A DNA stretch of 61,291 nt, counting the filler, from Catajapyx aquilonaris (Eukaryota), in NCBI GenBank assembly GCA_000934665.2. It is 2 parts of 2 records of this genome, joined end to end, with 100 filler letters (N's around TTAATTAATTAA, not from the genome) between each part and the next. Parts side by side here need not be neighbours in the genome. Positions count along the whole stretch, not along the records: positions 1 to 30,621 come from JYFJ02004630.1; 1 more part is not named here. One strand, 5' to 3'. Every line of letters begins with the position of its first letter. The first letter of the stretch is position 1. The translations under genes and the position numbers were made by a program. A model generated the notes under the pieces. That model had not been told where the DNA came from, ran no database searches, and saw only the letters and a list, made by a program, of their open reading frames with translations. This document shows, in pieces, positions 1 through 30,721 of the stretch.

Positions 1-608
1 TTTTTTGAAAACCGGCCGCCATCTTGGGTCCTAAGGAACGAAAAAGATGGCGCCACGGGCAAAATCGCTTATTTTGGTCTAAACTACAATCCTGCAAAGC
101 GGCTTGCTTTTATCACGATTTGCCGCTTTTTTAGGCGTACCTCCTGCACTATTAGGGAAGTTTGACTTATGGAAGTTTCACTGTATGTTGCATGAGGCAA
201 ACCTGAATCTGGCCCAATGCAGGTAATTCCCTGAAAATAGGACTTGGCTGCACTCTTTTGAAGATTCATTGCTGCAGATCAAATGTAAGCCTCATTAACC
301 CAACCACGTAGATTTTGGCTTTAGCGTACTGCAAAGGTATGGATAAGATATTTTACCAAAAATAACAGCTACACTTACCACGTTCAGGGAAAACAGTCGG
401 AATGTGTCTGGAACAATTTTACTTGTCTAGAAGCCCCTAAATTAATATCAAAAAACAAGGCTACAAAAACTGGAATTGAATTGGAATTGGAGTACTGCCA
501 ACCAACTGTTAGGCTGATTTAATGATGAAAGGCGTGAAAATATGCGGAATAACAACCTTGAGAACCATGCGAGACGAAATTGCTTAGATCGTTGTACTTT
601 GCGAGAAG

Positions 609-696
609 TAAATTAATACTTATTTGCGCCTTTCTAGCACCTCAGAAAATAGCAAATTTCCGAAGTGCCAGAATGCCGCAAATAAGTATTAATTTA
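609..696. repeat. Imperfect palindrome / MITE remnant
   Basis: TAAATTAATACTTATTTGCG... pairs with ...CGCAAATAAGTATTAATTTA over about 40 bp with a few mismatches. Confidence 0.7.
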
Positions 697-875
697 TATA
701 TATTTCATTTTTCCCCTTGATACAACTGTAAGCCGTTATTGGGGAGTGGCATACCACCATCAGTTTCTGGTGTTTTCTGGTGTGTCAAAAGCAATATCAG
801 TTTTATTGCTTATTTTAAAGAATAGATCTTGTGTTTGTTAATTTTTGTAAATTCACATGTGATGTATATTTTCAG

Positions 876-3800
876 GCAATTTCCAGAGAAACAAGTGAAT
901 CATTTAGGCAACTGAAGGAAGAATTTGATACATACAAAGCAGAGAAGAAAGAAAATGACAAAATCCGTGAAGAACAACTTCTGACGTTGCACCAGGAGGC
1001 AGCAAGCCACAGGTTTGAAGCTATTTATTCATGTTAGGAATTTAAATTGTTTTTACAAAAGGAATATTTGATATTAATATACAGGTTGTGCTCCCAATGC
1101 CTTCTGTTGCCTTTTTAGCTTGAAAAATTGCTACTTTGTAATTATTCAAAACAGATTGCATAGGTGAGGATTTAAATAGGTAATAACTGCCCTTTGAATA
1201 TACAAAAGCTGTTAAAAAAAAAACGAACTTTTTCTATACAGACTCGATTGCTTAATTTGCAACATTTTAAGCACTGTCCCCTTCAAAGTAGTTCCCTCTA
1301 TAGATGATACAGTTTTAAATTTTTTCTTTCATTGTTGGAATGCTTCCTGGAACGCATTTTCTGTGATGATGCACAGTGCTCTTGTCACATTGTCCTGAAT
1401 CGCCTCTATGGTTCGGAAATGATGTCATTTCAAATTCTTTTTAAATTTCGAATCTAGCAAAAAGTCTGCTGGGGCTAATTCCAGACAATAGGGTAGATTG
1501 GCACAACAGATGTCCGATGCCTTGCCAGATAACTGATGACGAGGAGCGATTTGTGAGCCGGCGCATTGCCATGGCGCAATATCAAAGTCTGGCTTTCCCA
1601 CAATTTAGGCCTTTCCTGGGCACAGCAGCTCTCAAATGCACTAAAACATTCTGGTACAACACTGTTTGTCTGCCAATCTGACAACATGGTCAAAATTCAT
1701 AATGAAAAATGCTTTTCTAATCCAAAAACACAACCAACATCACCTTGACCTTTGACTGACTGATCTGTGCCTCATTTGGTTGAGGATACCCTTCCCAAGT
1801 ATGCTTGGTAAAGCAATCGAAATGTGTCTGTAAAATTTTTACCACTTTTTTAGCGACATTTTACACAAAAACATTGTTTTTCAACTCATTTTCACTTTCT
1901 CACTTATTCGACGAACAGCATGTCGAAGTGCTCACTTAAGTGGATTTGTCTCGATGACCAATGGTCATAGCGGAAAGTGGCAAATGGCAATTTGTTGTCA
2001 AGACATGTGCTAGGCACTGTCAGTAGCCGCTCTTTGTGCCAGTTGATGCCCTATTTAAAAAGTTCGGTTTCCTTTTGAACAGCCCTCGTATCTTACGGCT
2101 GCTTTAACAATATTGTCATGAAACATTCTAGAACAACCTGGAAGGCATCCATTCACCAGTTTTAGAATTACAGCAAAACCTTGATGTAACGCTCTTCAAG
2201 GGACTGCCCAAAAGTAGTGTTATATGCGGGAAAATTTACCGTATGGAAATGATCAAGGGACTGGAAAAAGGGGGTGTTAAAAGCTGGAAAGCGTTATATC
2301 AAGGTTTTACTGTATTTGTAACCTGTATGAAAGATAGTGTATTTACTTGAATCTGAGACAAAAATAAGGTGCATCTTAGAATCAGGTACAAAGCATTCTT
2401 ACATAGTTAGTTAACCTTTGACGACGTGAAACTAGGGGTGGGACTTAGATTCAAGTAAATGCGGTAACCCTCTGTGTGATCATTTCATGGCTGGCAAGTA
2501 GAGAAATGGTGCATCAATCTTGCTTTTGGTAGTTTGTCACAAGGGTATGAGCTCGGTTGTCAGAAAAGGTTGCAGTGTGGACACACCATACACACTTTTT
2601 GTAGAATTACCATGTAAAAATGCAGTCTTTGCACCAGTAATAGGAATGTTCATTTTATAGTAATGGCAAATAATGATACATAAGCTTAAAACATGTGGAT
2701 TTTCAAGCCACGTGATCGTTAGGCCCATGCATAATATAACTGTTTTGTGGGTTTGTCTCATGTTACATTGTGTGAATAAGCAGTGGAAGAGTTCATCAAA
2801 TATTGCATACCCATTGTTCTGAATATATTTTAAAGGTGTCCAGAATCATTAACTATTGTAATATATATTAATGGTTTTTACAATAGGGCATCTGCTTCCA
2901 AGGCAGTATCTCAATTGGAATATGTGAATGAGCGATACAAGACCCTGCAAGTAAACGCCGATTCATATAAGCGGCAGGTTTCGCATATGGAGGATAGGAG
3001 CAGAAAACTTGCTGAAACAGTCATAAGGCATGAACAGGCCATCACTGCCTTGCGTGGAGAGCTACTGGATTTGCAACGCAAGTTATGTAAAGCAGAACTC
3101 GATGTTAAGAACTTGGAGAGAGAGAAGCTGATTCTCAAATCATCTGAAGAACGTTTACTGCATGAGAAAAAGCTTGCGTCACAAGAGAAGTCCAACTATG
3201 CATTGGTTGTTTCTAATTTAGAGTCTCTGAAAAGCAGTCTAGAAAGAAGCAGATTAGAAGCCAACATGCGACTTGAAAATCACACAGTCAGCCTGAAGCG
3301 GGAGAACGTATTACTAAGAGAAAAGTTGGATAAGCAGCAGGACAAGTTCAGTGAAGCAATGAAAGTGTGGGATACCAGTACAAATGAGCTTCGGCAGAAG
3401 CTACAGGTGGAAATAGACAGGAACCGGGTTTGCCAAGAGCAACTGTCTAATACCTTGACAGCAGTACAAACCCTTACACAAGAAAAGGAAGACCTCCAAA
3501 AACAACTTAGTAGCAGTGACAGTCCTGTCACCATTGAATCAGAAACCAGTCCATCTTGCCAGACCTTGGAAAATTTGAAACATACCCAGATACAATTAAT
3601 GAATGCACAAGCCCATATTGATACTCTTGAGAAGAAATTACAAGTGGAGCAGGCTCATCGGAATCAGTTAAAGAGCATGACGGAATCATTTGAGAAGAAC
3701 ATGCAGGAGAGCAGTGCTTCTGCACGTGCCTATAAAGACACTATGGAGAGGAGGTAATGATCTAGATGCATTTCTTTTATTGGTATACTAAACATCGGCC

Positions 3801-5092
3801 TTTTTTTAGATATGAAGAATTGCACCAGACTTGCATAGAAGTGACAAAAGGAAAGGAGGCGCTTCAGGGAGAAAAGATAAAAATGCAAGAAGAATTTTAT
3901 CAGGCTTCTACGAGGCAGCAAGATGTGATTTCCAAATTGGAAAAAAAATTAGACAGTATTCAGACTGAGTATGAAAGTGCTCTAGAAAAGGCAAAGGAGA
4001 GAGAACAGGTATGAGTAGACTTTTTCAAAAAAGAAATAGTTTTGGAAATAATTTAATCATTTGTTATAGGCCGCTGAACAGGCAAGGAAGGACAGAGTGG
4101 AGCAAGAGGAGACTGCTCGGGAAGCCCAAGAAAAGTACGAGAGAGAACTGATTTTACATGCTGCTGACATTGAAGAACTGAACGCATTGCGAAAGGAAGC
4201 AGAAAACTTTTCTACTCGCCTTGAGGCTGCAGAGCGTACGGCATCACTGTCACAGGAAGAACTTGCACACATTCGCACTCAGTGGCAGGAAATGCAGCAG
4301 AAATTCGAGGAAGAGCTGACAGCAACGAAGAAGCAATTGGTTGAACTGGAGGACATTAATAAAGGCCTGCATGAAGAGTTGCTGAAAGTGACAACTCAGA
4401 TGTCTGCACTCCATAATGCCAACAGCACTGATACCTTGGGTGGCGTGAAGATGCCTCTCAATGAAGAATCATTTACAGAAGGTGAAGCCCGTACTTCAGA
4501 ACAACTCTTGACGTTGTCCCGGTTCCTTAGGCGAGAGAAAGAGATAGCTACCAACAAGTTGGAAATAGCAGATGCAGAGAATAAAAGACTTCTTGCTAAG
4601 ATGAGTTGTATGGAACGTCAAATGGTAGACATGCAACAGAGAGCTCAGGAGGAGCAAGAAAAATTACAAAAGGGTCTTAGTGATATGGAATCTGCGAAGA
4701 AACATGAAGAACTCTTGCGCAAACTTGAGACACTGAATGCTCTTACTGACAGCAATTTGTTGATGAGGGAAGAAATGGATCGACTTCGTGCAGAGAGGCA
4801 GGCTATGCAATCGGAGCTTTCGAAACTGCAGGCTGATTTTGCCCCTCTTCAAGAACAGAATCGTACCACTGAGGATCGCCTGAACACGTTAACAGCAGAG
4901 AACCAAGCCTTACGAGCAGATTCTGCTCGTTGGAGGGCTCGGGCCAATGCTCTTACAGAGAAAGCTAATACTAAGGCTACAGTGCCCACAATTAATCCAG
5001 AGGAGTTGAAGAAAGCCCAGCAAGACCGCGATCGGGCACAATCTGAAGCCTTACGGGCAACTCAACACATACAGCGACTGCAGGTACAGCAG
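876..5092 (+). CDS. TPR: Nucleoprotein TPR/Megator, internal coiled-coil portion (4 exons; 5' part upstream of the window, 3' part not found)
   Basis: Exons 876-1012, 2887-3753, 3810-4008 and 4070-5092, all AG/GT bounded and phase-consistent (2226 nt, 742 codons). Heptad-rich protein with TPR/Mlp1-like motifs EAQEKYERELILHAADIEEL, SEQLLTLSRFLRREKEIA and LNALTDSNLLMREEMDRL. Confidence 0.9.
1201..2090 (-). mobile_element. Degenerate mariner transposon in a TPR intron
   Basis: TIRs TACAAAAGCTGTTAAAAAAAAAACGAACTTTTT / AAAAAGTTCGGTTTCCTTTTGAACAGCCCTCGTA with TA ends. Minus-strand remnant HGNAPAHKSLLV...ELAPADFL resembles the mariner HDNAPAH...YSPDLAP motifs. Confidence 0.8.
2169..2314. mobile_element. 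Tc1/mariner-pogo-type MITE
   Basis: TA-CAGCAAAACCTTGATGTAACGCT ... AGCGTTATATCAAGGTTTTACTG-TA; 23-bp TIR with TA flanks. Confidence 0.75.
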
Positions 5093-5995
5093 GTAAGCTT
5101 GGCCATATTTTGGGATGTGGGTTGTGTGTGTAGTAGGGTGGTCCAAAAATGACGAAAGTTTGAAAAGTCAGCTTGGATTCTCATGAAAATTTTCCTTTTG
5201 ACAGAAAATGAACTTTTTCAAAATATAGGCAATATCGGATAATATTTAGAGGTCGCGCCGTGGCCTTGACGTTCCGAAATTTTGTGCCTTTTCGCTTTCC
5301 CCACGCGTTGGACCGCTATCCACAGCTTTCACACTAGGAAATTCTGTCACGGATCCTGCTCATTCTGTTCCTTCATTTCTGTACTGGGTGTGTGTGAAAT
5401 CAGAGTGAAATTGGAAAATATTTAGGGGTCGCACCGAGTGTCAACATGAAGGGATGCGCGCTGTCCACTCCTCCCTGTTCCTGCACCTCCACTTGGTTGT
5501 TAATAGCACTGGGGAACACACGTTTTGGTGCCTTGAAGGTTAGGTCGATTTTAGGGTATATCTGTGGTGCTGATTCCAAAACTGGCATCCGTTTTGCTCC
5601 ATCTGCTCTAGTTCTTGAGGTATATTGTTTTAAAGTTTGGACCGGTTTACTAGGGGTCTTTCCGAATCAAGTGAGCCGAAATGTTTTTACATCATCTCGG
5701 ACCTTGGTGAAAATAATCATGGATGTACAGACATATGCCATAATGCGCAATACCATTGGGAGGGGAAACATCGAGAAACTTTGACAATGGCCGAAAATGA
5801 CGTCTTTTTTGGAGAATTTTTTTAGGTTACTGAAGTGGAATTGTTCAAAACCCAATGAACATATCGCACCCCGGCAATAACAGGGGCACAAGTCCAAAAA
5901 GTCAATTTCACAGGAGAGCACTTTGAAAGTTGTATAGTGTTGGTATAGTGTTATCATAAATAACAGGGGTACAAGTCCAACAATGACGATTTTGA

Positions 5996-6117
5996 CTTAT
6001 TACTAGAGCAGGGTCCATGACCGTGTGCACATTCAGAATGCATATTCTGATTTAAAAAAAATTAATAATTAATAATTCTGATTATTCGAATGCTGCGGAC
6101 CCTGCTCTAGTAATAAG
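5996..6117. mobile_element. Short MITE / inverted repeat
   Basis: Perfect 21-bp inverted repeat CTTATTACTAGAGCAGGGTCC (5996-6016) / GGACCCTGCTCTAGTAATAAG (6097-6117). Confidence 0.65.
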
Positions 6118-7744
6118 CAGGGTTCCCACGCTGTCGGGAAACTCTTAAGAATGTCGGGAATTCGTATTTGCTTATTCCCGACCTTGAAAAAGTCGGGATT
6201 TCGAGGAAAATGACAAAATGTCGGGAAAATGTCGGGAAAGTGCAAAAATATTCGGAAAACCAAAGAATGGATTTTCCATCACCACCCCACCACCAAAATG
6301 CCCCACCCCCACTTCCCAACAAGCTTAATCCTCAAAAGGGTTTGGAAGCTAACCCTTATGAGGAGGAAGAATTTTGGTGGCGGTCAGGAGGGGGGCCAGG
6401 GGGGGGGGGGGGGGTTGACAGGGGAAAACCGGAAAAACCCAGGAACTCAGTCGCAACCAAGGCGGGATTGTTCAAAAAAAATGTTTCGCTAAAATTCTGT
6501 GTTAATTTTGATATGTTGCGGGAAGTCGTTCAGCATGATACGAAGGGTAACTTGTCGCCATTTTAAATTTTGATAATATTAACTGTTCAAACAAAAGAAG
6601 CAAAAAGAACTGTTTTTGCCGCCATTTTTCCAAGATGGGTGCTGTAATAGTAGTGTAAAACAGGCAGGTAAAACTGCCGAAAACTATTCTTCCGCTGGGT
6701 GAGATCAATATTGTAAGAAACAAGTCAATTGGTTGGGGTTAGTCCGTCTCATGAGGATGGGTGAAATTCAATTGTAATTTATTAAAAATATTCGAGACTT
6801 GGAGTCGGTAAGAATTAGGCGACCCCAAGTCTCGAATATTTTTAATTACAATCGAGCAGCAGTGGCGTATGCAGGGGGGAGGGGGGCCCAGGCGGGTCGC
6901 ACCCCCCCCCCCCTCTCCCCCGCCACACGAAATTTTTGAAATAGCCCGAAATAGCATTATAATTACTAGTTCGTGATTTTTGGGGGGGGGGAAGTGCTAC
7001 CAATTTCATCAAATACACACCCATTCAAATCTCCAACATTCACCTAAGCTTGTGTGACCTTCAACTCAAAAAATTTCCGCCTGCGGCGACCTTCCTCCCC
7101 GCCCTTTACCGCTTGTTCACCTAGTGCTTATGAAATGGGCCCCCACCCGAAATTTTTCTGCCTACGCGCCTGCCTTATTGCTGGATATTTTAATGGGGGA
7201 GGGGGATGTACAAAACTAAAACTAAAATTCACCTAGGCTTGTGTGACTTTGAAGCTTGAACCCCCCAAAAATTCGCCTGCGGCGCGCAATTTTTTGCTAC
7301 TCTCATTGGCCCTACCACTACGCTGGCTTTTGGACCTTGTCTCGTGTACGGTTTTATTAATGCGGTAGCTTAGGCTCTGGAAGAGAGTGTATTCTTCCTT
7401 ATTTGCCTTCTATTACTACAGCTACTGGATAGGGCTGAAACGGGCTATAAGTACTTATTTACACCCGCTGTATCGATTTTATCGATATTTTTGACCGATA
7501 TATCGGCATATCAAGATCGTACGATTAATGAAGATTTTTTGCGTTTTTCAATTTGAAATTAGTTCGCAAAATTTCTGGGAGCGGATATTAAAACTGGGCG
7601 AAAATACTCAGGCCATTTTAGCGGAAACAGTAGCCCATGTGTTGGGAAAAGGGGCGGAAAATTACGATAAAAAGGTCGGGAAATTACGATAAAAAAGTCG
7701 GGAAATGTCGGGAATTTCACTCTTAAAAACGCGTGGGAACCCTG
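6118..7744. mobile_element. Non-autonomous DNA transposon (hAT-like CAGGG ends) with G/C-run inserts
   Basis: 14-bp perfect TIR CAGGGTTCCCACGC / GCGTGGGAACCCTG; many subterminal GTCGGGA repeats near both ends; internal CAGTGGCGTA poly-G fragment near 6859. No clean TSD. Confidence 0.7.
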
Positions 7745-8343
7745 TAAAGCGTGCAGGCAAAACAGGAAAATTAATGTTCAACCTTGCCTGGAAAGGTCGT
7801 CGTTGAAAGGACTGTACCATATACTATTCCAAGATCTGAGGCAAGATGATGAAAGGTTTTTTCCCCCCGTATTTTCGGAAACTGATGCATCCCAAATATC
7901 AGGATAGGCCCATAGACCTCAACTTCAGATATAAAGTCTTCGTTATTAATTTCCTTCACTAATTGCACAATCCAAGGTGGTAAACTGACCTTTCCTCGCG
8001 GCATGAAATACAGGGTCATTGAAATTGAATGTCCCATTTTAAAAACCCTATAACTCGAAAACTTGCAGGCATATCTGAATGATTTAAGTTTTGAAATACT
8101 AAGAAAGGTCTACAATTTTGGTTTCAAGTTAGTTTTTTAAATTCGATATGAGCTTCATTTATCTCTAGGCAGAAAGCCTGTATTCAGTGTCAGGACAAAC
8201 TATCAATCACATCTGGAGTTACCGTTGCTATCCTATCCCGTAGGTGCTGGATATCTCTGATATTTACACCATAGAAATTGTTCTTGATGATTCAAATAAA
8301 AAAGTCGCCTCATCCATGAAATAAACCTGCCGTAGGAAATTTT

Positions 8344-8815
8344 TACCGTATTACCTCATATTGTGGCATGCCAGTGTAGGCAAGGTCAACCAGTTTTTAG
8401 AAATGCTTGATCTGGTGGCTATACCGGCATGCCAGTATAAGGCGAGGTTTTCACATAAGTTACATTATCCTTTCCAGACTTGACATTTGCCTGAAAAGCA
8501 ACATTCACGTAAAGGCTATCAAAAAGGCGCATTTTCTGGCAATAATCTGTATTTAAACAGTATGTTGGAGCAGGGGATTCCCCTGTCAAAGCAGGCTGAC
8601 GATGGGATTGGTCACACAATCTACATTTTTTGTTGCATATTCTCACAGCTTGTACACTCACCCATTTTCATTGTAACATTATTTTAGTATGGTACCAGAT
8701 GCATTCCAAAAAATTTGGTAATGATCAAAATTACGGAAATCTACCTCGGTTATTGCGGCATGCTGGTCGAGCTTGTTTTATACCGGCATGCCGCAATATG
8801 AGAGGTAATACGGTA
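8344..8815. mobile_element. MITE with TACCGTA ends, nested in the Tc1-like element
   Basis: About 50-bp TIR TACCGTATTACCTCATATTGTGGCATGCC / GGCATGCCGCAATATGAGAGGTAATACGGTA. Confidence 0.75.
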
Positions 8816-9119
8816 TTTGTTCAGCTTCCCAGTGTAAGAAGTCTCGTATGAGAAATTTCTCTGTGCATAGCCCCTCCAGAAGCCCAGATTTTACCCACAT
8901 GTACTGTTTTGTGGAGATACATGTATGGTGACAAGATTCGGCACCACCATCACCTACGAGAAAAGATTTCAGCGGTAACGCCAGACATGCCTGAGCGGGT
9001 TAGGCAGGACACTGATTACCATATTTACATTTTTTGAGCGACAAATGGAGCTCATATCGAAACAAACTATGGTAAGACCAGAATTTTAGACATTTCTTAG
9101 CATTTCAAAACTTAAGTGG

Positions 9120-9867
9120 CGGATTCTCGTGGACTCCCGTAAGTCCCGTAAGTTCGTCCAAGATGGCGACGGATGCGGGACCCCAGAAAATTGGCATACA
9201 TGTGGTACCCCGTAAGTCTTTACAAGGAAGAATTGAAAGTAGGGGGGAGATATGGGAGTTCTTGGAGCTCCGCCCAGCGGAAAAGGACAGGAGCCAATGG
9301 CAGGCGTTGTTTCAAACCGTAGTTCGGGCAAACGTCGCGAGAGTGTGCAGTAGGCAATCGAGTCTAAGGTCAAGGACCTTATCGAGTGTGGAGTGTCTGC
9401 TGCTAGTGAGGTGAGAGCGAAGACGATGCTGGGGAAGAAGTCTTCCCCGGGTTCTGCCCGCGCCCCTCACCGGCTGAACTGGGATGACCGTAAAAAAGAG
9501 GCCATTGTGGCCCGCATGGAAGACACTCCAGGACTCGTGGAAGGGGCCCTAGTAGCGGCGTCACTAGTGGCGAAATACTTACGTTTATGTGCACGTCCCG
9601 TGAGCGCAATCAATGGACCTGGGTATCCGTAAATAATTCGATCCCCGCCTTACGGACACACAGCCGCTGTCGGGGAAGCGGCCATTTTTGAGAGCAACAG
9701 ACGACTTACTGGTGCTGCCACCCACCCGTATCTTTGCGGGCCTTTCCTTCCCGCAGCCCTTGCGGGAGCGCGACACGATAATTACACTTCGGGAGTTGCC
9801 GGGGTGTGACGTCACGTTTACGAACGTTTGCGACTTGCGGGCTTCCCGTAAAGTCCACGAGAATCCG
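9120..9867. mobile_element. GC/CpG-rich non-autonomous TIR element, nested
   Basis: 16-bp perfect inverted repeat CGGATTCTCGTGGACT / AGTCCACGAGAATCCG enclosing about 720 bp that is visibly more GC- and CpG-rich than its flanks. Confidence 0.6.
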
Positions 9868-10340
9868 ACTATAAATCATTAAGATATCTCGACAAGTTTG
9901 CTAGTTATAGGGTTTTAAAAATGAGACATTCTTTTTCGATGACGCTGTAGCGTGGACATACGACTGGGCCTGTGGGCCTGTTGCGGGCTTGAGTTGCCTG
10001 TGGCTGTGGCTACGTGTGAATGCACCAATGCAAACCAATGCTCCTCGACCGAGTGGCGCCTGGCCTTGTAGGAGCAAAGATGCTCAGGCCTGCCACTCAA
10101 TCGCGCTGTCGAGCAACTTTCAAGCCACTCCGAGCCCACAGACGCCTACCCTCGCCACTGCAGTGGCCACGTGTGAATGCTCCCATTTAATCCTGTCTAT
10201 AAGCAACGGGGGCCGGTTACTGTGGCGAGCGTCTACCACTAAAAGTGGCCACGTGTGAACTGGGCCTTAGTGTACAGGCCCTTTTCCACCGGCATAATTT
10301 TTGTTCTGAACAAAATGCAAGCCTGAACAATTTTTGGTAA

Positions 10341-10559
10341 GGGTCCTTTTCCATTTGCTGATACCCACTATGCATATTTTCTGGAACAGGCCTATTTTGA
10401 TTGTTACTCCATGGAAATGCAGTCATTGTTGACACTGTTTACTCCATGAAAATGTGAAAGGTGGGATTGTTGACTATAACAATAAGGGTAGGCCTGTTCC
10501 AGAAAATATGTATAGTGGACCCGTATCAACCTTTGGTATCAGCAAACGGAAAAGTACCC
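10341..10559. mobile_element. MITE / long inverted repeat
   Basis: GGGTCCTTTTCCATTTGCTGATACC...CATATTTTCTGGAACAGGCCTA pairs with TAGGCCTGTTCCAGAAAATATG...GGTATCAGCAAACGGAAAAGTACCC. Confidence 0.6.
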
Positions 10560-10719
10560 AATTTTTTGTTGCTAGGCGATTAATAATAAAGTAGTATAAA
10601 TAAATAACACTTCCCTTGTTAGTAGGGGGAAATTTTCACAGCACAGATTTGGAAATTGGCTACAATGTTCAGTAATTTGCAGAACACTAACTCACAGTCC
10701 ATAACTTGTCTAATTGCAG

Positions 10720-13100
10720 CCCATCAAACACCTGTGCGATGGTGTCCTGGCAAAGGGAATGACCATTGCTCAAGCTAAAAAGGAAGTGCTTGCCGAAATC
10801 AAAGATAAGTGTGGGCTGGAGATTCCCATCGAGAGGTATGTTTGCTTTCTTCAGCCTTTGCACACTAGTAACGTGAAATTATATTTCAAAGTTGCCTCAT
10901 TAGGCTGAAATATCTTTATTCTAAACACTGATTTATGACCCATACATAATTTGTGTGTACATATGTCTTCCTGCTTTTGTTACTAGATGTCGACTTCGCC
11001 ATAAGAATTGGAAGAATCCAAGCACCGTGTACCTAGACCACCAGGTAATTGGAGAAGACATCAACATGTATTCAAACTGGGAGGTCCTTGTTCAGGAGCT
11101 AGAAGATGTTGAAACCGTCACATCAGACAAGCAGAACACCCTCTTTCTTCGGAGGTGGAGGCCCTCTCAGTACACACTTGACCCTTTCCAGGAGGTTGTG
11201 CTTGATACAGAAGCAGTTGATGAGCTCAAGCAGAAAGTAAGGTTTGGTCACCCAAGATTTGGGAACTTGGGACTGACTGTTTTTTCTGGCAGATATCAGA
11301 AGCAAGTGGGATTCCCTTTGAGTATGTGGACTTTGCAAAGGGTCCTGGCTGCTTCCCCTGCCCTGTGTCTCTCCTCACAATCCATCAAGAGTCTGATTGG
11401 AACCCAAACACCACTATGCTCAACACCTGGCCGCTCTACATACACAGGGACAGTCACGTCGTGTACTACAAGTCAGTTTCTCATATTATTTCCTTATACA
11501 GTGGTATTTTTATTTATCTACCCTGTGATAGGGCGGTGCCCTCGTGGGGGGACACAATGCTCGGAGAACAATGAAAAATAGGGTACTAAACAATGTGTGG
11601 GCATAATACAGTAAACATACATTACATTATCAATAACAAGTCAAAGTAAAAAAAGAAGCGATCCAGATATGATTAATCACAGAAATTGTTTAAATTGTAA
11701 GTCAACTCCTTAGGTAAGTTGTTAAACAAAAGGTGAAAACGATCCGGGGGGAATTTTGGGAAGTTGAAAAGGAATGAAAGACAGGGAGTACGGAAGAAGG
11801 GACAGACAAATAATATATGGTGTGGTGTGAAGGTTCGTTTATGTTACACCAAGTGCAATCTGACTCATTATCGAAGGAGATTCTGCGTCCAAGGAGAGAA
11901 ACACTGGGTGAATTGTGGCGGAGGTTCATCAGTAAACGAGTAGTTTTAATCGGGGTAAGGAATGCGAAATAATAAGCAGGTGAGTGGAGGGCAAGGAGAT
12001 CACGATAGTGTGAGTATTGGGTTGAAATAGAGAGTGCCTGTTTGCTTTTGGCGTCTAAAGAAATAGGAAAACAACGCAGGAGATGCTTTCACAGCAAGAG
12101 GAAGAGACAACTTGGGTGCAAATTAGATGGCGTTTTACGGAGCTGGTGCATTTTTTCGCTGCGCTCACAGTTCAACCATAGAATCATCATTAAAACTCCA
12201 GATCAAATTTCTCTCGAATTTCGCATTCGAACTCTGGAATGGTCGAAGTATGAGGGTAATTCCCTTGTCACTATCCAAAAATTAAGTCGCACACTGTGAG
12301 GTGGCTATGACTTATTGAAAGCAGATCATTATGTCATTTTGTCAGATGAAGATGGTGTAGCAATGTTCTGCTACCAGTTAGCAGCAGAGCCATGGAATAG
12401 TCGAGATATAATAGTCGTAACTGACGCAACTTCACAAGGTTTGTTGTGTCAGTTACGTTAATCCTAATCTCTCCTGAAAATATTAATATGAACAGGCGTG
12501 ATCTAAAGTAATCACAAAATTGCTCTTGAGGAGTAGATTGCATATCAGTTGTAACATTACTTCTAAACACATTCAGCTCACAGGGTTTCATGGCATTACA
12601 GTACCCCCCAAAGAGCTTGTCCTATTCATGTTGTGTGAGTTACATTACATTAATATTTTACAGAGTCCATTCAAGTTACTGTTGTGAAATTATAAAATTA
12701 TGGCAATAAGCTACCAGGAGGCACCCACATGGGAATAATTTTAAATTCCTTTCCATGAACATTTGCCATTGCCATCAATATCAATACAGCGTGAATCCTG
12801 TCCACCTGCAAATCTGTTCAGTCAGTGAGGTGTTTGAGGGATAGTACGCGTATAAATGTGCATTATAAATCCATTTTTTCTTTGAACAGGGACAGTAGAG
12901 AGGAGCTGAAATCTCTCTCTGAGGAGGAGAAGAGAGAGATAGCAGCCAAGGAAAATCCCCGCCTGGGGTCAGTAGGACGAACGGGGTCATCAACATCAGC
13001 AACAATCTCGTCAGCTTCCTGTACTCCTCGGAAGGAGAGGGCACTGAAGATATACTTGGATCAAACACCTCCATCCAGAGATGAGTTGGAAGTTGACTGA
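10720..13100 (+). CDS. USP47: Ubiquitin carboxyl-terminal hydrolase 47 (USP47/Ubp64E), C-terminal 251 aa only
   Basis: Exons 10720-10835, 10987-11236, 11293-11471 and 12890-13100 (756 nt, in phase, ends TGA). Motifs RLRHKNWKNPSTVYLD, RRWRPSQYTLDPFQEVVL, SGIP..VDFAKG.G.FPC..S.L.IHQ..DWNP, LNTWPLYI and PRKERALKIYLD match the USP47 C-terminus. AATAAA at 13810 and 14013. Confidence 0.9.
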
Positions 13101-14102
13101 GCCCGTGATTGGTCATGGAAAAAAAAAATCCAACAAGCTTCATGGGAATGGTTGTCGGTGACACAGATAAGGTGTCACAATTCTTGACAATCCCGTTAAT
13201 TTGCGTTTAATTTGTACAGCCCACCAGTTATTTTCCTCCAGGCCTCTTAATCCCCATCAGTGCAAATGGCAAGTATTGACTTATGAGCTGAATTTTGTTT
13301 TGTAAAGAGGCCTGCATGATTTGACCCCAGAGATTTTAAAATTTTAAGTTTTCTTCCAGTGCAGTGAAGTCATTGTTTAAAAATGATTGATAAACTAAAT
13401 ATTGCTCATGGCGTGAAATTGAAGATCCCTTCACAAGCCAAGTATCAATGACAATGTCACGGCACCAATGTTCACATCATGCTGACACTACAGCGAATTT
13501 GATAATGCCCAACTGACATTCTGATTACTGTGCAGTTTATCAATCTATTTTACACAATGAGATGCCTTGAAAACGCTACAGCCCAAAAAGTTTCATGCCT
13601 TACATAATGTGGGAAGGTAGTCCTTTTGTTCTCCGATACGTCTTATCACGTTCTCGTTAACTTATGACCCAATTAGGGGATAAGGGTCTAATTTTTTTTG
13701 GCCTTAGTTTTAAAAATGTGCTTCCTGTTTGGAAATGATGCGAAACGCATTCAAACAAGAAGCCAAACTGGATACTGCACCAGTGCTGTAATGTTAATTT
13801 ATTTGAATGAATAAAAGCATCAAACCCAAGCATGCCATATTATTTGAGAAGATTACTGTCAACTTATTGCTGAGTGTCATATCATGCTTTTTGGAAATCC
13901 TGCCAAAGATTAAAGTGACGGAAAGGATGAACTCTGGTGCATGGAAGCATGGCCAAGTTTATGAGGAATCAGTTGATGCCTGTTTCAGTCATTTACAAAT
14001 CTGTAGAAATTGAATAAACACAAAAGAAACAGTTAATTCTTTTGTCATATTCCAATGAGAGTACCTATTTGGTCCCTCTCTTCAGGATTATAGAGAGAAG
14101 GT

Positions 14103-20030: not shown

Positions 20031-20383
20031 TTATGCCTTCTTCTCGGTCTTCTTTGGGAGGAGGACGGCCTGGATGTTTGGCAGCACTCCGCCCTGGGCG
20101 ATGGTCACCCCATAGAGAAGCTTGTTCAGCTCCTCGTCGTACCTGATGGCCAGCTGGAGTCTTCTTGTCACGGGCAGCGTAGCCTGCCAGCTCGAGCACC
20201 TCGGCGGCCAAGTACTCCCATCACGGCCGCCAGGTAGACGGGGGCTCCGGCACCGACACGCTCGGCGTAGTTGCCCTCGCGGAGGAGACGATGGATGCGG
20301 CCCACGTGGAACTGGAGGCCGGCCCGGCTGGAGCGGGTCTTGGACTTCCCCTTCACCTTGCCTCCCTTGCCACGGCCAGTCAT
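20031..20383 (-). pseudogene. His2A: Histone H2A (canonical type), frameshifted
   Basis: [25 protein letters not shown]...; an extra G at VM|E (about 20217), deletion of the RIIPRH segment, ends PKKTEKKA. Stem-loop GGCCCT-TGTC-AGGGCC at 19982-19997 has a mutated loop. Confidence 0.85.
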
Positions 20384-20469
20384 CTTTGCAGAGTATGTGC
20401 GAGAGGAAGCTGTACAACCAAACGATCGGAGCTCTGAAGAGAGAATGAGGGGTGGAAGGGTGGGGGGAT

Positions 20470-20583
20470 GGCCGTTAAATAGGCGAAATGGTTCTGAATA
20501 AGGGCGCGCGCTGATTGGGCCGCCCGGAGCCAATGGGAGCGCAAGACCGTGGCCAGTTGCGAACCTTGCCGCTTCTATAAAAC
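20470..20583. promoter_or_regulatory. Divergent H2A/H2B promoter
   Basis: Opposed CCAAT boxes (ATTGG near 20514, CCAAT 20530), TATAAAA at 20576 and TATTTAA on the minus strand near 20475. Confidence 0.65.
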
Positions 20584-20666
20584 GGCCACTCTGCGCGTGG
20601 AAAACTTCATTCTACATTTTGGATCTCGTTGCGTTCGGTCCGTGTCCCGATAAGCTCTGCATTAAG

Positions 20667-21037
<371 letters not shown>

Positions 21038-21507
21038 ATCGCTCCTCTTCATCCAGACAACTAAACAAACGGTCCTTTTCAGGGCCAACACTTTTCTCAA
21101 GTAGAGATGAGCATTGTTGCGACATGTCTGAATTTCATCTGGAACTTGGGGAACGAATAAAATTGCAAGCAAAAAGAGGCTCAAAGGGTAGATTAATATT
21201 GGCGTTGCCAGTTGACTATGATCGACAATGACTGTCAACTGCGCAACAATTAAGAATGCTGGTGATGGGGACAGTGTTGAAGCTGATTAAAAACCGATAC
21301 GATGCGATATTCAAATCACTGCAAATCGATATATCGACCTCGAATCGATGTATCATTGTTCCCAACAGTAATGTGCGGGAATTATTTGCAGACTGTTTCC
21401 CCTATTTCCCCTATTTAAGGGTCACTCAAGCCCCGCCCGTCTTCATTTACTGCCTAGACTTCTGTTCGTCTGCTTGTCCGGCACTGATCTCACACCGCAC
21501 CGAGAAG

Positions 21508-21882
21508 ATGACTGGCCGTGGAAAGGGAGGCAAGACGAAGGCGAAGCCGAAGACCCGCTCTAGCCGGGCCGGCCTGTTGTTCCCCGTCGGCCGTGTCCAT
21601 CGTCTTCTGTGGAAGGGCAACTACGCATCTCGAGTCGGATCTGTGCCCCCCGTCTACTTGGCGGCCGTAATGGAGTACCTGGCCGCCGAGGTGCTCGAGA
21701 TGGCAGGCAACGCGGCCCGTGACAACAAGAAGTCGAGGATCAACCCCCGCCACCTCCAGCTGGCCGTCAGGAACGACGAGGAGCTCAACAAGGTCTTCTC
21801 GGGGGTGACCATCGCCCAGGGAGGGGGGCTGCCAAACATCCAGGCCGTCCTCCTCCCAAAGAAGACCGAGGAGAAGGCTTAG
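21508..21882 (+). CDS. His2A: Histone H2A, divergent, intact ORF (124 aa)
   Basis: ATG at 21508, [50 protein letters not shown]...PKKTEEKA; stem-loop AGCCCT-TTTA-AGGGCT at 21925-21940; upstream TATTTAA. Confidence 0.8.
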
Positions 21883-22439
21883 ATTCACCGTCCACACATC
21901 TCTACCGCCTCTTATAAACTAAACAGCCCTTTTAAGGGCTACCACAAGATTCACGTGAGAAGGCGAACACAGAGAGAGCAAAAATAAGCTAACCTACATA
22001 CATTGTATTGCTCAGGTTGTCTAATTTTAGCTTTTGAAACCGTGAATCGAGATACTGAAGAAAAAAAAATCCACTCTTACGGGCAAGTTGAATTGTCTGG
22101 TTACAATCAATAATTGGCCTTCTTTCGAGCTGAAATATTATATAAAAAAGTTGATGTGTTACATGTCACATCGCAGAATAATAGCAGTAAATATTAGGCG
22201 CGCCAACCCGATATAGTACATACTGTATAATATAATTTTGTAGCATGCCAGATACCTCCTAACAATGTAGCTATGTACACCACTCAATTTGCTGCTGACT
22301 GTAACAGACAAACTGACAATATTCAAATATTTCCATGCCTACCATATCATTAGAACTTCCTTCTTTTTAGCCTATCAATACTTACTTGCTATGATTGTTG
22401 TAATTGGGATCCGGTACTCGGGTGAGGGGGATATGTTTT

Positions 22440-22703
22440 TATTAGATCGCCCATTTTCTTCTGAAATGTTCCGAAGAGCTAATTGATGCTATTTGGTCCA
22501 AAATGTATATCTCAACGTGATAGGTGTGGTAGCCCTGAAAAGGGCTGTTTGTTTAAGGCTGGGGCTGGTGGTCCTTCCTAAAAGGAAGTCTGAGGAGGTT
22601 TAGGCCCGCTCTCCACGGATGGGGCGGGCAAGCTGGATGTCCTTGGGCATGATGGTGACCCTCTTGGCGTGGATGGCGCAGATGTTGGCATCCTCCAACA
22701 GGC
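22440..22703 (-). pseudogene. His3: 3' fragment of the variant H3 gene (inverted duplicate of about 24848-25110)
   Basis: Encodes [33 protein letters not shown] (stop at 22600) and carries a near-identical 3' UTR and stem-loop (22531-22546). Confidence 0.85.
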
Positions 22704-22926
22704 AGCAGGGATGTTGAGCTGTCCAAACACAAAAAGGCATGGGACAAAAAAATATACTGTGCCTTCATATTCATCAGTCACTTTATTCCGAATGACTTTC
22801 TGAAAGCTGCAAGTCTTTACTGAGTAAGTGAGTTGGCATCGACAATGGGGCCCGAGACAAGTTAGCACCATTCACAGGCCCTGAGAAACCTGAAAACAAT
22901 TCAAATGGTCAGTCACTGACACTACT

Positions 22927-23135
22927 CAAGAAGTGGAGGATCATCCCCCGCCGCCTCCTGCTGGCCGTCAGTAACGACGAGGACCTCAACAAGCTTTTCT
23001 CGGGGGTGACCATCGCCCGAGTCCTGCCTAACATACATGCCGTTCTCCTCCCGAAGAAGACCGAGAAGAAGGCTTATATTCGCCCACCACCCATCTTTCC
23101 CGCCCCATATAAACAAAAGTGCCCTTTTCAGGGCT
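22927..23135 (+). pseudogene. His2A: 3' fragment of histone H2A
   Basis: [49 protein letters not shown] with the stop lost and no 5' half; stem-loop at 23120-23135. Confidence 0.85.
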
Positions 23136-23889
23136 ACCACTTGATTCAAGTGAGACGGCGACCAGAGCAAAAAGGACTTGAACAATATACTAAACGATGT
23201 ATAGCAGGCTGTTACTACTCTTGATTTCAACGGGTGAAACACGAACCTAGAAATTGAAATGTAATGGTTCGGCGGGTACTAATGAGAGCAGTTCAATTTG
23301 ATAGTAAAAACAAGTGGCAATGTCTCTGGCGCAAAATATTATAACAGGTCAAGTAATTGGTGTCACCTACAGAATAACAGCAGTGCATATTACAGTACTT
23401 CTTCCCGGCCAACCCGTATTTAAAATTAAAGCATGCAAAATATAGAGGGTGTTCCAGACTGGTGGGTCACTTTTTAATGACTTCTATAGGGCGATATCAG
23501 TTATCAGGGTTATCATATACCTGTCAAAGCGACAATCAATAACTGAAATAACAGATAACACCTACGAGAAAATTCTACTTCTTAATTAGAATAACGTATA
23601 TCATCTCATAATAATTATGAGATGTGACTTACGAGGTTTTTTGCAGAGATGGATTGAGCTAAATAGGGGGTCTAACGAAAGCGCCTTGTGAAGTCACCAC
23701 TTACATATCCTAATTACAGTCTCAAAACGAAGTGACCAGTGCACCCCATCCTTTATTCACGATTCATTTTTTACTATTCTACGAATGAGAAGAAAAAAAA
23801 GGTTTCGCTCTCAACTGGAGAATTTTGTTGGCCCTGAAAAGGGCCGTTTGTTTCAGTTGAGTTCTACTGGTAGGACCACCCGGTGATGT

Positions 23890-24440
<551 letters not shown>

Positions 24441-24540
24441 GGGGCACACTCTCGGGGCGGGAGCATCATTCCTGGCTTGACTTTCGGAGAAGACGCATCG
24501 CTCGACCGCCACTCTCGCCCGCTCTTTCCACGCAGCCATC

Positions 24541-24951
24541 ATGGTCCGCACGAAGCAATCCTCCCGCAAGTCGACCGGAGGGAAGGCCCCTCGGAAGGAG
24601 CTGGCCACCAAGGCAGCGCACCCGGGCGTCTATGCCAACGGCGCGGTGAAGAGGCCCCACCGGTACAGGCCTGGCACCGTGGCTCTTCGTGAGATCCGCC
24701 GCTACCAGAAGAGCACCGAGCTGCTGATCCGGAAGCTCCCGTTCCAGCGGCTGGTCCGCGAGATCGCCCAGGATGTCAAGTTAGACCTGCGCTTCCAGAG
24801 CTCGGCGGTGATGGCCCTGCAGGAGGCCTCCGAGGCCTACCTGGTGGGCCTGTTGGAGGATGCCAACATCTGCGCCATCCACGCCAAGAGGGTCACCATC
24901 ATGCCCAAGGACATCCAGCTTGCCCGCCGCATCCGTGGAGAGCGGGCCTAA
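24541..24951 (+). CDS. His3: Histone H3, divergent variant lacking K27/S28 (136 aa)
   Basis: Intact ORF with the H3 fold and the SAVM 87-90 replication-dependent motif; tail reads [17 protein letters not shown]; stem-loop AGCCCT-TTTC-AGGGCT at 25005-25020. Confidence 0.92.
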
Positions 24952-25342
24952 ACCTCCTCAGACTTCCTTTTAGGAAGGACCACCAGCCCCAGCCTTAAAC
25001 AAACAGCCCTTTTCAGGGCTACCACACCTATCACGTTGAGATATGCACTTTGGACAAAAAAGCATCAATTACATTTGCAACATTTCGGAATAAAATGGGC
25101 GCGCTGATAAGAACAGTTATTGGTAAAATCGCGTAAGCTGCTACTTTTTAAGCAGATACTTGCTAAGAGTTACTTTCTCGAGTATCTGGAATAGCACCTG
25201 CTGATATTATATTATATATCCATGCACCTGATCTCTCGCAAATTATTTAGCGCTGTACAATATAATATAAACTCGGAGAATTTAACAGTCGTATTTTGAA
25301 GAAACCTGATTTTGGCCATTATTGGGGCGCGAAAAAGGTGTA

Positions 25343-25781
25343 TGGGACAACGACTAAAAATCAGAAAGTGAGTTATTCGGATAGTCTAAAACGTGGGCTT
25401 TCAGAATATAATATATTCTGAAAGCCCACGTTTTAGACGTTTTTAGACGTTTTTAGACGTTTTAGACGTATTATCTACCTGATATATGATAATCTGGCCT
25501 GGAGAGACGGTAGGGCCATTTGTTTGAATGCAAGTTCCGCCGGCAGCTGCGGCGTTTTCACCCGCCATCATAATGCCCCCACGGGAGAACACTGGAAAGG
25601 TCCGAAGCCATCCGATGATGGCCGGGTGAAGACGTCGCAGCTGCCGGCGGAACTTGCCTTCAAACAAAAGGCCCTACCGTCTCTCCAGGCCAGATTATCA
25701 TATATCAGGTAGATATATTCTGAAAGCCCACGTTTTAGACTATCCGAATAACTCACTTCCTGATTTTTAGTCGTTGTCCCA
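25343..25781. mobile_element. Foldback/palindromic MITE with an internal rearrangement
   Basis: TGGGACAACGACTAAAAATCAG... and ...CTGATTTTTAGTCGTTGTCCCA form long inverted arms around a short spacer (about 25572-25613). Confidence 0.75.
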
Positions 25782-26497
25782 CATTGTATTCTTGGGTCCT
25801 CATATTGACCCCTGTTCCAATGGCCCTTTCCCACTGACAGTACGTTAACTATGCTGTCCGGGTCCGTCCCGTGTCTTCTCTGCTTCCAGAATAATTCCCC
25901 GAGGCAAACAGCCTTTCACTTGCATGCACAATGGTCAGCACTGACCTCCGAAGCTAAGAGTTCAAGCCGACGCGACGGTTCAAACTCAATCCAGTTTTTA
26001 GACTGGGTCCGATTTGACAGTCCAGTTCCTGGCCTCGGTTGTTTCAACAACTTAGTAGGCTAAGTGGTACCAATTCCACGCCCAGAATGTCCTCTTTCTA
26101 CCTGCCCAAGGGCCACCCTGGACCCTGGATATCCAGAAATCCGACCACCTGTCACATTTCGACCATTCATAACCGCCTGAGACATTTCCAGGGGCTTGTC
26201 AGGCTGAACCAAGTGGAGATAAATACAGTCCGAAACATCCCGAATGTCCCTGGACAGGTCCCGGGGCCGCCCACGGGCGCGCACTGTGGTGAAAATGGCA
26301 ATAATATAGACAATAAAGCACATTCGGATAGAGTGGAATGAGCCCAGGCTCTGCCGGTCTCCATTTTCGCGCGCTTCCCCTCAGAGGTCCGCGCCTCCAC
26401 TATAAAACGGCCACCCTTGACGGGGAGGGCTTCATTCCTCAGCCAGCAGTCGTCGAGGTAGCATCGTCTCCCGCACGTCTCCAGTTGATCCGCCGAG

Positions 26498-27022
26498 ATG
26501 ACAGATGTGGTAGCAGTAGCAGCCTCGTTCCTGGGCACACCCATGAAGCTAGAGGTCTACCAAGCCCAATGCGGGGAGGACCCAGCCCAGCCATCCCGGG
26601 ACCTGTGAGATGGGGAAGGGGGCCATAAAGAGCCTGGACGAGAGAGGAGGTTCCTCCGTGCAGGTCATCAAGAAGTACATCGCCTGCAACTACAAGGTGG
26701 ACGCAGAGAAGGTGACCCCGCTCCTCAAGAAGTACCTGAAGAGCGCTGTGCTCTCCGGAGGGTTGGTCCAGGTCAAGGGGAATGGGGCCAGCGGGTCATT
26801 CAAGATCGGAGGGAAGAAGGGGTCATCGGGGACAAGGGGAAGGCGACCAAGGAGAACGAGGCCAAGCCCAGGAAGGTAGCGGCTGGGGAAAAGACCAATA
26901 GGGCGGCCCCCAAGTGGAAGAAGCCTCTTGCTGCCAGGGCCAAGGACCCAAAGACTCTCAAGCCCAAGAAGGCTGTAACCAAGAAGACCACCAAGAAGGC
27001 CCCAGCACCCAAGAAGAAGTAA
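26498..27022 (+). pseudogene. His1: Histone H1, divergent, two frameshifts
   Basis: Globular domain HP..CEM...AIKSLDERGGSSVQVIKKYI...LVQVKGNGASGSFKI; K/P/A-rich tail in another frame ending PKKK*; frameshifts near 26550 and 26830; TATAAAA at 26401; imperfect stem-loop at 27102-27117. Confidence 0.8.
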
Positions 27023-30621: not shown

Positions 30622-30721
30622 NNNNNNNNNNNNNNNNNNNNNNNNNNNNNNNNNNNNNNNNNNNNTTAATTAATTAANNNNNNNNNNNNNNNNNNNNNNN
30701 NNNNNNNNNNNNNNNNNNNNN
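30622..30721. other. Artificial scaffold gap / linker
   Basis: Exactly 44 N + TTAATTAATTAA (stops in all six frames) + 44 N = 100 bp. Confidence 0.95.

Follow-up and report, generated by a model that had tools for sequence, protein, structure and literature searches.

The coiled-coil protein of the nuclear basket, TPR / Mlp1-Mlp2 / Megator, is known as a partner in oncogenic gene fusions. In TPR-MET and TPR-NTRK1 the N-terminal TPR coiled coil dimerises a kinase domain; these fusions are somatic. Spurious chimeric gene models, in turn, are a well-known artefact of misjoins and collapses at repeats in draft assemblies. In the locus described here, a TPR coiled coil stands ahead of the C-terminal part of another protein, USP47, as it does in TPR-MET and TPR-NTRK1. 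Unlike in those fusions, the partner would be a non-catalytic tail and the TPR part is a central piece of the protein; no transcript across the junction was seen. As in the spurious models at draft-assembly repeats, two unrelated fragments are split by high-copy repeats, and their transcripts run on into exons that the locus lacks; unlike in established cases, the misjoin here is a probable one. We conclude that the TPR and USP47 fragments are real, and that the claim of a chimeric gene made in an earlier note on this DNA is not supported. Their adjacency most probably reflects a misjoin or collapse in the assembly, and a TPR::USP47 gene is not expected to exist.

We use the term “window” for the whole analysed stretch of DNA, 61,291 nucleotides in length. 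On its left side four TPR exons lie on the plus strand. The first (876-1012) runs from phase 0 to phase 2 and has an AG acceptor, a GT donor and an open frame; it matches residues 601-638 of two carp TPR proteins (tblastn, 52% identity, E 0.001). The second (2887-3753, 867 nt) encodes coiled coil, has AG..GT borders and an open frame, and matches TPR relatives with tblastn E-values down to 8e-32. The third (3810-4008, 199 nt) has AG..GT borders and ends in phase 0. Exon 4 (4070-5092) has 1023 nt, i.e., 341 codons, with phase 0 at both ends, and holds the TPR_MLP1_2 domain that the window gene has in common with TPR, Mlp1-Mlp2 and Megator (frame 4070-5152, E 3.8e-18, 66.2 bits versus the Pfam gathering cut-off of 36). 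It aligns to approximately residues 1065-1416 of TPR relatives of 2300-2600 aa. Together the four exons have 2226 nt, or 742 codons, and no internal stops. The claim that the TPR exons end at a phase-0 donor, CAG|GTAAGC at 5092|5093, agrees with the exon borders and frames, apart from small coordinate corrections. The start of the following intron (5093-5156, plus strand) shares a DNA contig with exon 4; one such contig in each of the three DNA runs X1-X3 (contigs 4, 12 and 21) spans 3889-5156.

The match to TPR is collinear. All 22 HSPs from nine TPR relatives fall within 900-5077 on the plus strand, in line with approximately residues 540-1350 of near-full-length relatives, and 122 of the 124 HSPs from 60 long relatives fall, in order, within 800-5200 on the same strand. 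Over approximately residues 600-1416, identity to the relatives of 2300-2600 aa is 29-38%. The TPR homologue search gave 462 matches at E up to 0.001; the closest among the 150 of them that are listed have 35-38% identity over the full exon. Another homologue search gave 23 matches, the best of which have 34-45% identity. No close relative of either protein was found among the matches of these searches.

Only the middle third of TPR is encoded in the window, so a complete TPR is not found there. The N-terminal Pfam domains of the relatives (PF25481 and PF25785) would fall upstream of the window, and approximately 1000 C-terminal residues are missing from it. No further TPR exons were detected elsewhere in the 61,291 bases by tblastn, a weak negative, since in that part of the protein the relatives are only 25-28% alike mutually. 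The residues of 60 long relatives beyond approximately 1400-1450 likewise had no tblastn match in the window.

The right side carries the 3' end of a USP47 gene, also on the plus strand. The earlier note regarded a phase-0 USP47 exon with the acceptor CAG|CCC at 10720 as the next recognisable exon on the strand after those of TPR, and the exon is confirmed by the Pfam USP47_C domain, open frames and splice sites. The exon (10720-10835) matches positions 13-52 of the USP47_C profile (E 5.6e-7) and residues 1146-1179 of the USP47 relative P0026 (BLASTP E 1e-7). It is followed by exons at 10987-11236 (Pfam USP47_C, E 8.5e-31), at 11293-11471 (AG..GT borders, open frame, tblastn matches to six USP47 relatives) and at 12890-13100, the last coding exon (Pfam E 1.6e-6, extending to profile position 240 of 240), which ends in the stop codon TGA at 13098-13100. 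The four exons have 756 nt, i.e., 251 codons and the stop, with no internal stops. The three frames with Pfam matches all exceed the 27-bit cut-off and together cover profile positions 13-240 of 240. The end of the intron that precedes the first of these exons (10564-10719) is in the same DNA contig as the following exons: contigs 6 and 14 begin at 10564, contig 22 begins at 10585, and all three reach 11616-11622 with no differing letters. A contig of the putative transcript run X5 (contig 31) starts exactly at 12890 and extends to 13829 with one differing letter, which places the 3' untranslated region at 13101-13829 at least.

Identity of the window exons to the six USP47 relatives is 35-39%. 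P0026 (1402 aa) matches the window by tblastn only via residues 1180-1342. Its UCH catalytic domain (residues 201-591) has no counterpart in the window, no catalytic-domain exons were found anywhere in the window by tblastn, and everything upstream of the last approximately 250 residues of the full USP47 is without a counterpart there.

Between the two fragments lies the 5.6 kb interval 5093-10719, which the earlier note described as having no long ORFs; the longest stop-to-stop frame is indeed 149 aa, and the depth is of the repeat type. The Pfam scan included 11 frames, four of them intronic and seven from the interval; none of the latter seven (96-149 aa) reached the cut-off. Tblastn revealed no homology to TPR or USP47 in the interval. 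The summed DNA word depth is 111-8808 across all ten bins of 5138-10741, versus approximately 23-56 over the exon contigs, and 1812-1912 contigs per run were placed, roughly two thirds of which are only 95-99% alike. Because of this raised depth and the many imperfectly matching contigs, we regard the interval as interspersed repeats. DNA depth, loose ends and repeat-type joints delimit a block of high-copy interspersed repeats at 5157-10563 (no strand assigned), with the suspect join somewhere inside. The stretch between the last uniquely covered base on the left and the first on the right is high-depth repeat DNA only. No listed DNA contig crosses 5157-10563, which is evidence neither for nor against continuity. 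Among the repeats of at least 60 nt within 1-30600, none connects the two gene fragments, and there are no N letters in 876-13100. The record is of draft type, with single Ns inside poly-G runs. An artificial N44-TTAATTAATTAA-N44 linker occupies 30622-30721; among the literature matches listed for the TTAATTAATTAA string, none connects it with assembly linkers.

The evidence that separates the two fragments comes from X5, a single run of a second study on the same organism; its sample is not the one that all three DNA runs share. X5 contig 29 (1268 letters) covers 10718-10833 and 10985-11236 and is a letter-for-letter match to the USP47 exons of the window. It bears a GT..AG joint at 10835|10987 that none of the contigs of the three DNA runs has. 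Since this contig is spliced at a joint unseen in DNA, X5 behaves as RNA, and we infer that it is RNA. Upstream of 10718 contig 29 continues for 691 letters as a loose end that is not joined to 5092. The 30 loose letters beside 10718 have no match in the 61,291-base window on either strand at up to three mismatches; they are therefore unlike the last letters of TPR exon 4. Translated by hand in the exon frame, they give IYHLVPNDPE with no stop. P0026 has IYQLKINDTQE at residues 1131-1141, immediately ahead of the residues aligned to the exon (1146-1179) and at the beginning of its Pfam USP47_C domain, at residue 1130. The two peptides are identical at six of 10 positions, an alignment with a single relative that needs a one-residue gap. 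Judged from the letters, the part of contig 29 upstream of 10718 reads like the preceding USP47 residues. An origin of the loose end in spliced-leader trans-splicing was considered but rejected, since the loose part has 691 letters and reads as USP47.

On the TPR side, X5 contigs 25 and 26 cover 3124-3751 within the second exon. The fit of contig 27 begins at 4068, two letters before exon 4, and its 201 extra letters fit a splice of TPR exon 3 to exon 4. Contig 28, of 444 letters, agrees with 4694-5092 at every position, stops exactly at the predicted TPR donor, and then has 45 more letters. The location of this tail can be judged by depth arithmetic, not by letters. In the bin 10742-11208 the X5 depth is 17.8; contig 29 alone accounts for 17.80, and with the tail of contig 28 the value would be 18.10. 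The same calculation for the bin 4671-5137 gives 5.20 from contig 28 alone versus 5.21 reported. This arithmetic excludes the tail from 10742-10764 in the USP47 exon. A joint 5092|10720 is absent from the X5 joints listed, at the contig level and in one run; contigs lose rare variants, and a minor chimeric isoform could escape a contig-level search.

Both exon sets appear to belong to ordinary mRNAs, because contigs 28 and 29 continue to non-chimeric partners. The proposed splicing from 5092 to 10720 into a TPR::USP47 protein is not supported on either side: contig 29 enters another USP47-like exon outside the window, and contig 28 leaves the genome sequence at 5092 with a tail that depth arithmetic places off the USP47 exon. 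The junction transcript that the earlier note had suggested looking for is not among the listed joints of X5 contigs. One of the refuting conditions that it named, missing exons found elsewhere as the true continuation, is closely approached for USP47, whose exon continues in the spliced contig into an exon outside the window. The repeat-mediated misassembly that it had allowed for is the reading best supported here.

Under the misjoin or collapse, the window would contain the middle of an ordinary TPR gene and the 3' end of an ordinary USP47 gene. Each fragment would be spliced into its own mRNA with onward exons outside the window, those of USP47 reading as its own. The false join would be located inside the 5.4-kb repeat block 5157-10563, and should the two genes be genuine neighbours, a collapse would have deleted the DNA between them. 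Both the artificial nature of the DNA join and its place within the block are deductions from the evidence above. The one listed contig accounts for all of the summed DNA depth in each of the bins 2803-3269, 4204-4670, 10742-11208 and 13544-14000, so the contigs placed on these exons include no further copy with 95% identity or more. Several observations speak against a misjoin. The fragments have the same strand, 5'-to-3' order and compatible phases, as a real fusion needs, and a random misjoin yields such order and orientation only about once in four. The interval is free of Ns, and the case for a false DNA join is indirect. The phase agreement of one donor and one acceptor has a one-in-three chance and carries no weight alone.

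An unlikely alternative, though the best of those considered, is that a partial duplicate of TPR starting at approximately 3889 (the end of exon 3 and exon 4) lies in the USP47 intron upstream of 10720, and that the true TPR locus on the left was stitched to the surroundings of this duplicate on the right; the locus would then hold a real dead gene fragment in a chimeric assembly and would give no chimeric mRNA. There is indeed a hint of a second, approximately 99% identical copy of 3889-5156. In each of the three runs the word depth of the DNA contig over this segment is 1.5-1.7 times that of the remaining unique contigs, and a hand calculation for two copies predicts approximately 60, 57 and 46 in X1, X2 and X3 versus 56.4, 46.5 and 44.6 observed. 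It is to be remembered that word depth is not equal to copy number and that the three runs represent one sample. The differing letters of the segment number 2 in X1, 7 in X2 and 11 in X3, with 11 sites at which the letter flips between runs, whereas approximately 5.1 kb of other unique contigs bear only 0-1. In every run the contigs are interrupted at 3889, which falls within an exon, and both exon 4 and the USP47 intron are in phase 0 at either end. Against the duplicate, the window letter equals the X5 letter at the eight variable sites covered, up to 5085, so exon 4 of the window looks like the transcribed copy; moreover, nothing ties a second copy to USP47. Of the dead segmental duplication suggested by the earlier note, the part concerning the USP47 exons does not fit the single DNA contig per run at flank-level depth and the letter-for-letter match of contig 29; for TPR 3889-5156 the hint of a second copy is left.

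A real junction is less probable still than the duplicate. A deletion or translocation in at least one haplotype would have produced a gene joining the TPR coiled coil to the USP47 C-terminal domain, with intact genes on the other haplotype, and we consider this very improbable. The same strand, the 5'-to-3' order, the match of a phase-0 donor with a phase-0 acceptor, intact splice sites, open frames and an interval without Ns are all in its favour, and a rare isoform could be missed by contigs. The spliced contigs, however, pair each exon set with other partners and not with each other. Such a fusion would also cut USP47_C approximately 12 profile positions after its start, and a USP47_C-like tail was found in none of 167 TPR relatives (local HMM search, E up to 0.01). 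A heterozygous in-frame gene fusion is presumably far rarer a priori than a repeat misjoin. It is equally doubtful that TPR exon 4 really lies 5.6 kb upstream of the USP47 exons in any haplotype. If it does, this exon of 341 codons, phase 0 to phase 0, could be spliced as a TPR coiled coil with a USP47 tail or as a cassette that inserts a coiled coil into USP47. Finally, a correct assembly with nested or interleaved genes and very long introns, the 5' exons of USP47 lying upstream and the 3' exons of TPR more than 56 kb downstream, does predict that the upstream USP47 exon and the later TPR exons are not in the window, but it is hardly credible, as each of two same-strand genes must splice across the other's exons and TPR transcripts must also bypass a histone cluster and ABC-transporter exons, and we know of no nested or interleaved TPR-USP47 arrangement.

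A real junction would represent recent exon shuffling that combined a nuclear-pore protein with a deubiquitinase, and would be of moderate interest. With a misjoin or collapse as the preferred reading, the locus is a probable assembly error and mainly of value as a warning. A gene predictor could call here an in-frame TPR-USP47 protein of at least approximately 1000 residues, which the organism most probably does not produce, and on such an annotation the real TPR and USP47 models would come out truncated.

The window is animal DNA that contains spliced genes along with a histone cluster and remnants of transposons. Four exons of TPR, the nuclear-pore nucleoprotein, lie on the plus strand at 876-1012, 2887-3753, 3810-4008 and 4070-5092, each with an AG acceptor and a GT donor. 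Together they make 2226 nt, or 742 codons without a stop, and the fourth matches Pfam TPR_MLP1_2 (E 3.8e-18). In tblastn with nine TPR relatives, all 22 HSPs were collinear within 900-5077. A search of 1.84 billion database representatives placed exon 4, among the matches listed, against residues about 1065-1416 of TPR proteins that are 2300-2600 aa long, with identities of 35-38%. Thus the window holds roughly the middle third of the protein, ending about 1000 residues before its C-terminus. In TPR intron 1, two runs have DNA contigs in which 1290 is followed by 35 other letters and then by 1955, at single-copy-like depths of 36.7 and 24.5; in some of the reads a 664-nt stretch with transposon-like surroundings may be missing or replaced.

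The last four exons of the deubiquitinase USP47 follow on the same strand at 10720-10835, 10987-11236, 11293-11471 and 12890-13100, the last closing with TGA. They sum to 756 nt (251 residues and the stop), and their Pfam USP47_C match runs from profile position 13 to the end of the profile at 240. Both sets are ordinary members of their families (TPR/Mlp and USP47), incomplete in the window. The earlier note had proposed that they form one in-frame gene through a splice from 5092 to 10720. Both borders are as it described them: a phase-0 donor at 5092 (CAG/GTAAGC) and a phase-0 acceptor at 10720 (CAG/CCC). A USP47_C-like tail was absent from all 167 TPR relatives compared. TPR-MET-type fusions offer a parallel, and the likeness of the proposed chimera to them is conceptual only.

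The splice itself is not supported by the contigs of X5, a run from a different sample and study of the same organism. These contigs sit on exons without introns, and the 1268-letter contig 29 has a GT..AG joint from 10835 to 10987 that is missing from all three DNA runs; therefore we treat X5 as RNA. Contig 29 spans USP47 exons 1 and 2 and carries 691 further letters upstream of 10718, recorded as a loose end and not as a joint to TPR. The 30 letters next to 10718 have no match in the 61-kb window on either strand with up to 3 mismatches. Translated by hand in the same frame, they read IYHLVPNDPE. The sole full-length USP47 relative in the comparison (P0026, 1402 aa, with UCH and USP47_C domains) has IYQLKINDTQE at residues 1131-1141, at the start of its USP47_C domain (residue 1130) and immediately N-terminal to residues 1146-1179, which align to the 10720 exon. 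The absence of a window match and this resemblance indicate that the 10720 exon is spliced to its own upstream USP47 exon, outside the window.

On the TPR side, X5 contig 28 (444 letters) matches 4694-5092 without differences, ends its match precisely at the predicted donor and leaves 45 letters beyond it. The X5 depth of bin 10742-11208 is 17.8, which contig 29 alone accounts for (17.80); the tail of contig 28, if placed on the USP47 exon, would raise it to 18.10. In bin 4671-5137 the reported depth is 5.21, and contig 28 alone gives 5.20. By this arithmetic, which rests on depth and not on letters, the partner to which TPR exon 4 is spliced at 5092 would not be the USP47 exon. Farther downstream, X5 contig 30 (12629-12919) crosses from the last USP47 intron into the last exon without a splice and has 4 other letters, and contig 31 begins precisely at the exon border 12890; both spliced and intron-containing forms seem to be present in X5.

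Between the two exon sets, the longest frame within 5093-10719 is 149 aa; a Pfam scan of seven frames there gave nothing above the cut-off, and a homology search of the interval found neither TPR nor USP47. The DNA contigs come from three runs (X1, X2 and X3) of one sample, which is probably the source of the assembly. Single contigs span 3889-5156 and 10564-11616/11622 in the three runs. Between 5156 and 10564 the summed word depth is 111-8808 in every bin, whereas the exons have about 23-56, and loose ends and repeat-type joints abound in the interval. This marks it as a block of high-copy interspersed repeats, and the layout described earlier (TPR exons, an ORF-poor repeat interval, USP47 exons) is borne out in full.

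A dead segmental duplication, also suggested earlier, does not fit either the USP47 exons or TPR exon 2. Here each bin's summed DNA depth is that of its one listed contig (33.0 and 33.7, for example, in X1), the DNA contigs have no other letters, none of them represents a second copy of 95% or higher identity, and X5 contigs equal the window letter for letter. The contig at 3889-5156 differs: its depth is 56.4, 46.5 and 44.6 in X1, X2 and X3 against 21.5-36.7 for the other unique contigs (1.5-1.7 times theirs), and its other letters number 2, 7 and 11 and fall at 11 sites where the choice flips between runs, against 0-1 in about 5.1 kb of other unique contigs. The contigs of all three runs break at 3889, inside TPR exon 3. 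By hand calculation, these numbers fit a second copy about 99% identical and do not fit one heterozygous copy. They hint at such a copy of the end of exon 3 and exon 4 somewhere in the genome, and a hint it stays because depth does not measure copy number and a single sample underlies the three runs. At all 8 variable sites covered by X5 contigs, these have the window's letter.

The record is visibly a draft. Single Ns lie within long poly-G runs at 19131 and 47904, as is typical of a draft consensus unsure of homopolymer length, and positions 30622-30721 are an artificial linker of 44 N, TTAATTAATTAA and 44 N. The linker string has stops in all six frames, and a literature search for it gave nothing relevant among the matches listed. 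The linker shows that a pipeline put pieces of the record together, by concatenation or scaffolding. A histone cluster occupies 20031-27022, with H2A-type frames at 20031-20474 (minus) and 21232-21882 (plus), an H2A-type fragment at 22832-23224 (plus), H2B at 20702-21037 (plus), an H4-like frame at 23890-24282 (minus), H3 at 24481-24951 (plus) and a lysine-rich frame without a Pfam match at 26609-27022 (plus). The arms of a 224-nt inverted repeat, 98% complementary (22480-22703 and 24848-25071), enclose the whole H4 frame and the larger part of the H3 frame. Exon-like minus-strand frames at 45304-50087 have weak matches to PDR_CDR (E 1.5e-4) and ABC_tran (E 7.6e-5, under the curated cut-off), which suggest an ABCG-type gene.

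We consider it quite probable that the TPR-USP47 adjacency is an assembly misjoin or collapse within the repeat block, the repeat-mediated misassembly that the earlier note gave as one of its alternatives: the adjacency rests on 5.4 kb made only of high-copy repeats, and each exon set has other spliced partners. Each set comes from a normally spliced mRNA with adjoining exons outside the window. The genes may be true tandem neighbours with the stretch between them collapsed, which would account for the shared strand and order; or, if the putative second copy of 3889-5156 lies near USP47, the assembler could have passed from one locus to the other by way of it. We rate a true rearranged haplotype yielding the chimera as very unlikely. 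A correct assembly in which two same-strand genes splice across each other is implausible, as TPR splicing would also need to bridge the histone cluster and the ABC-transporter exons. The chimeric gene as proposed is most likely not real; the locus is useful as a warning of a probable assembly error and of gene models that would go wrong here.
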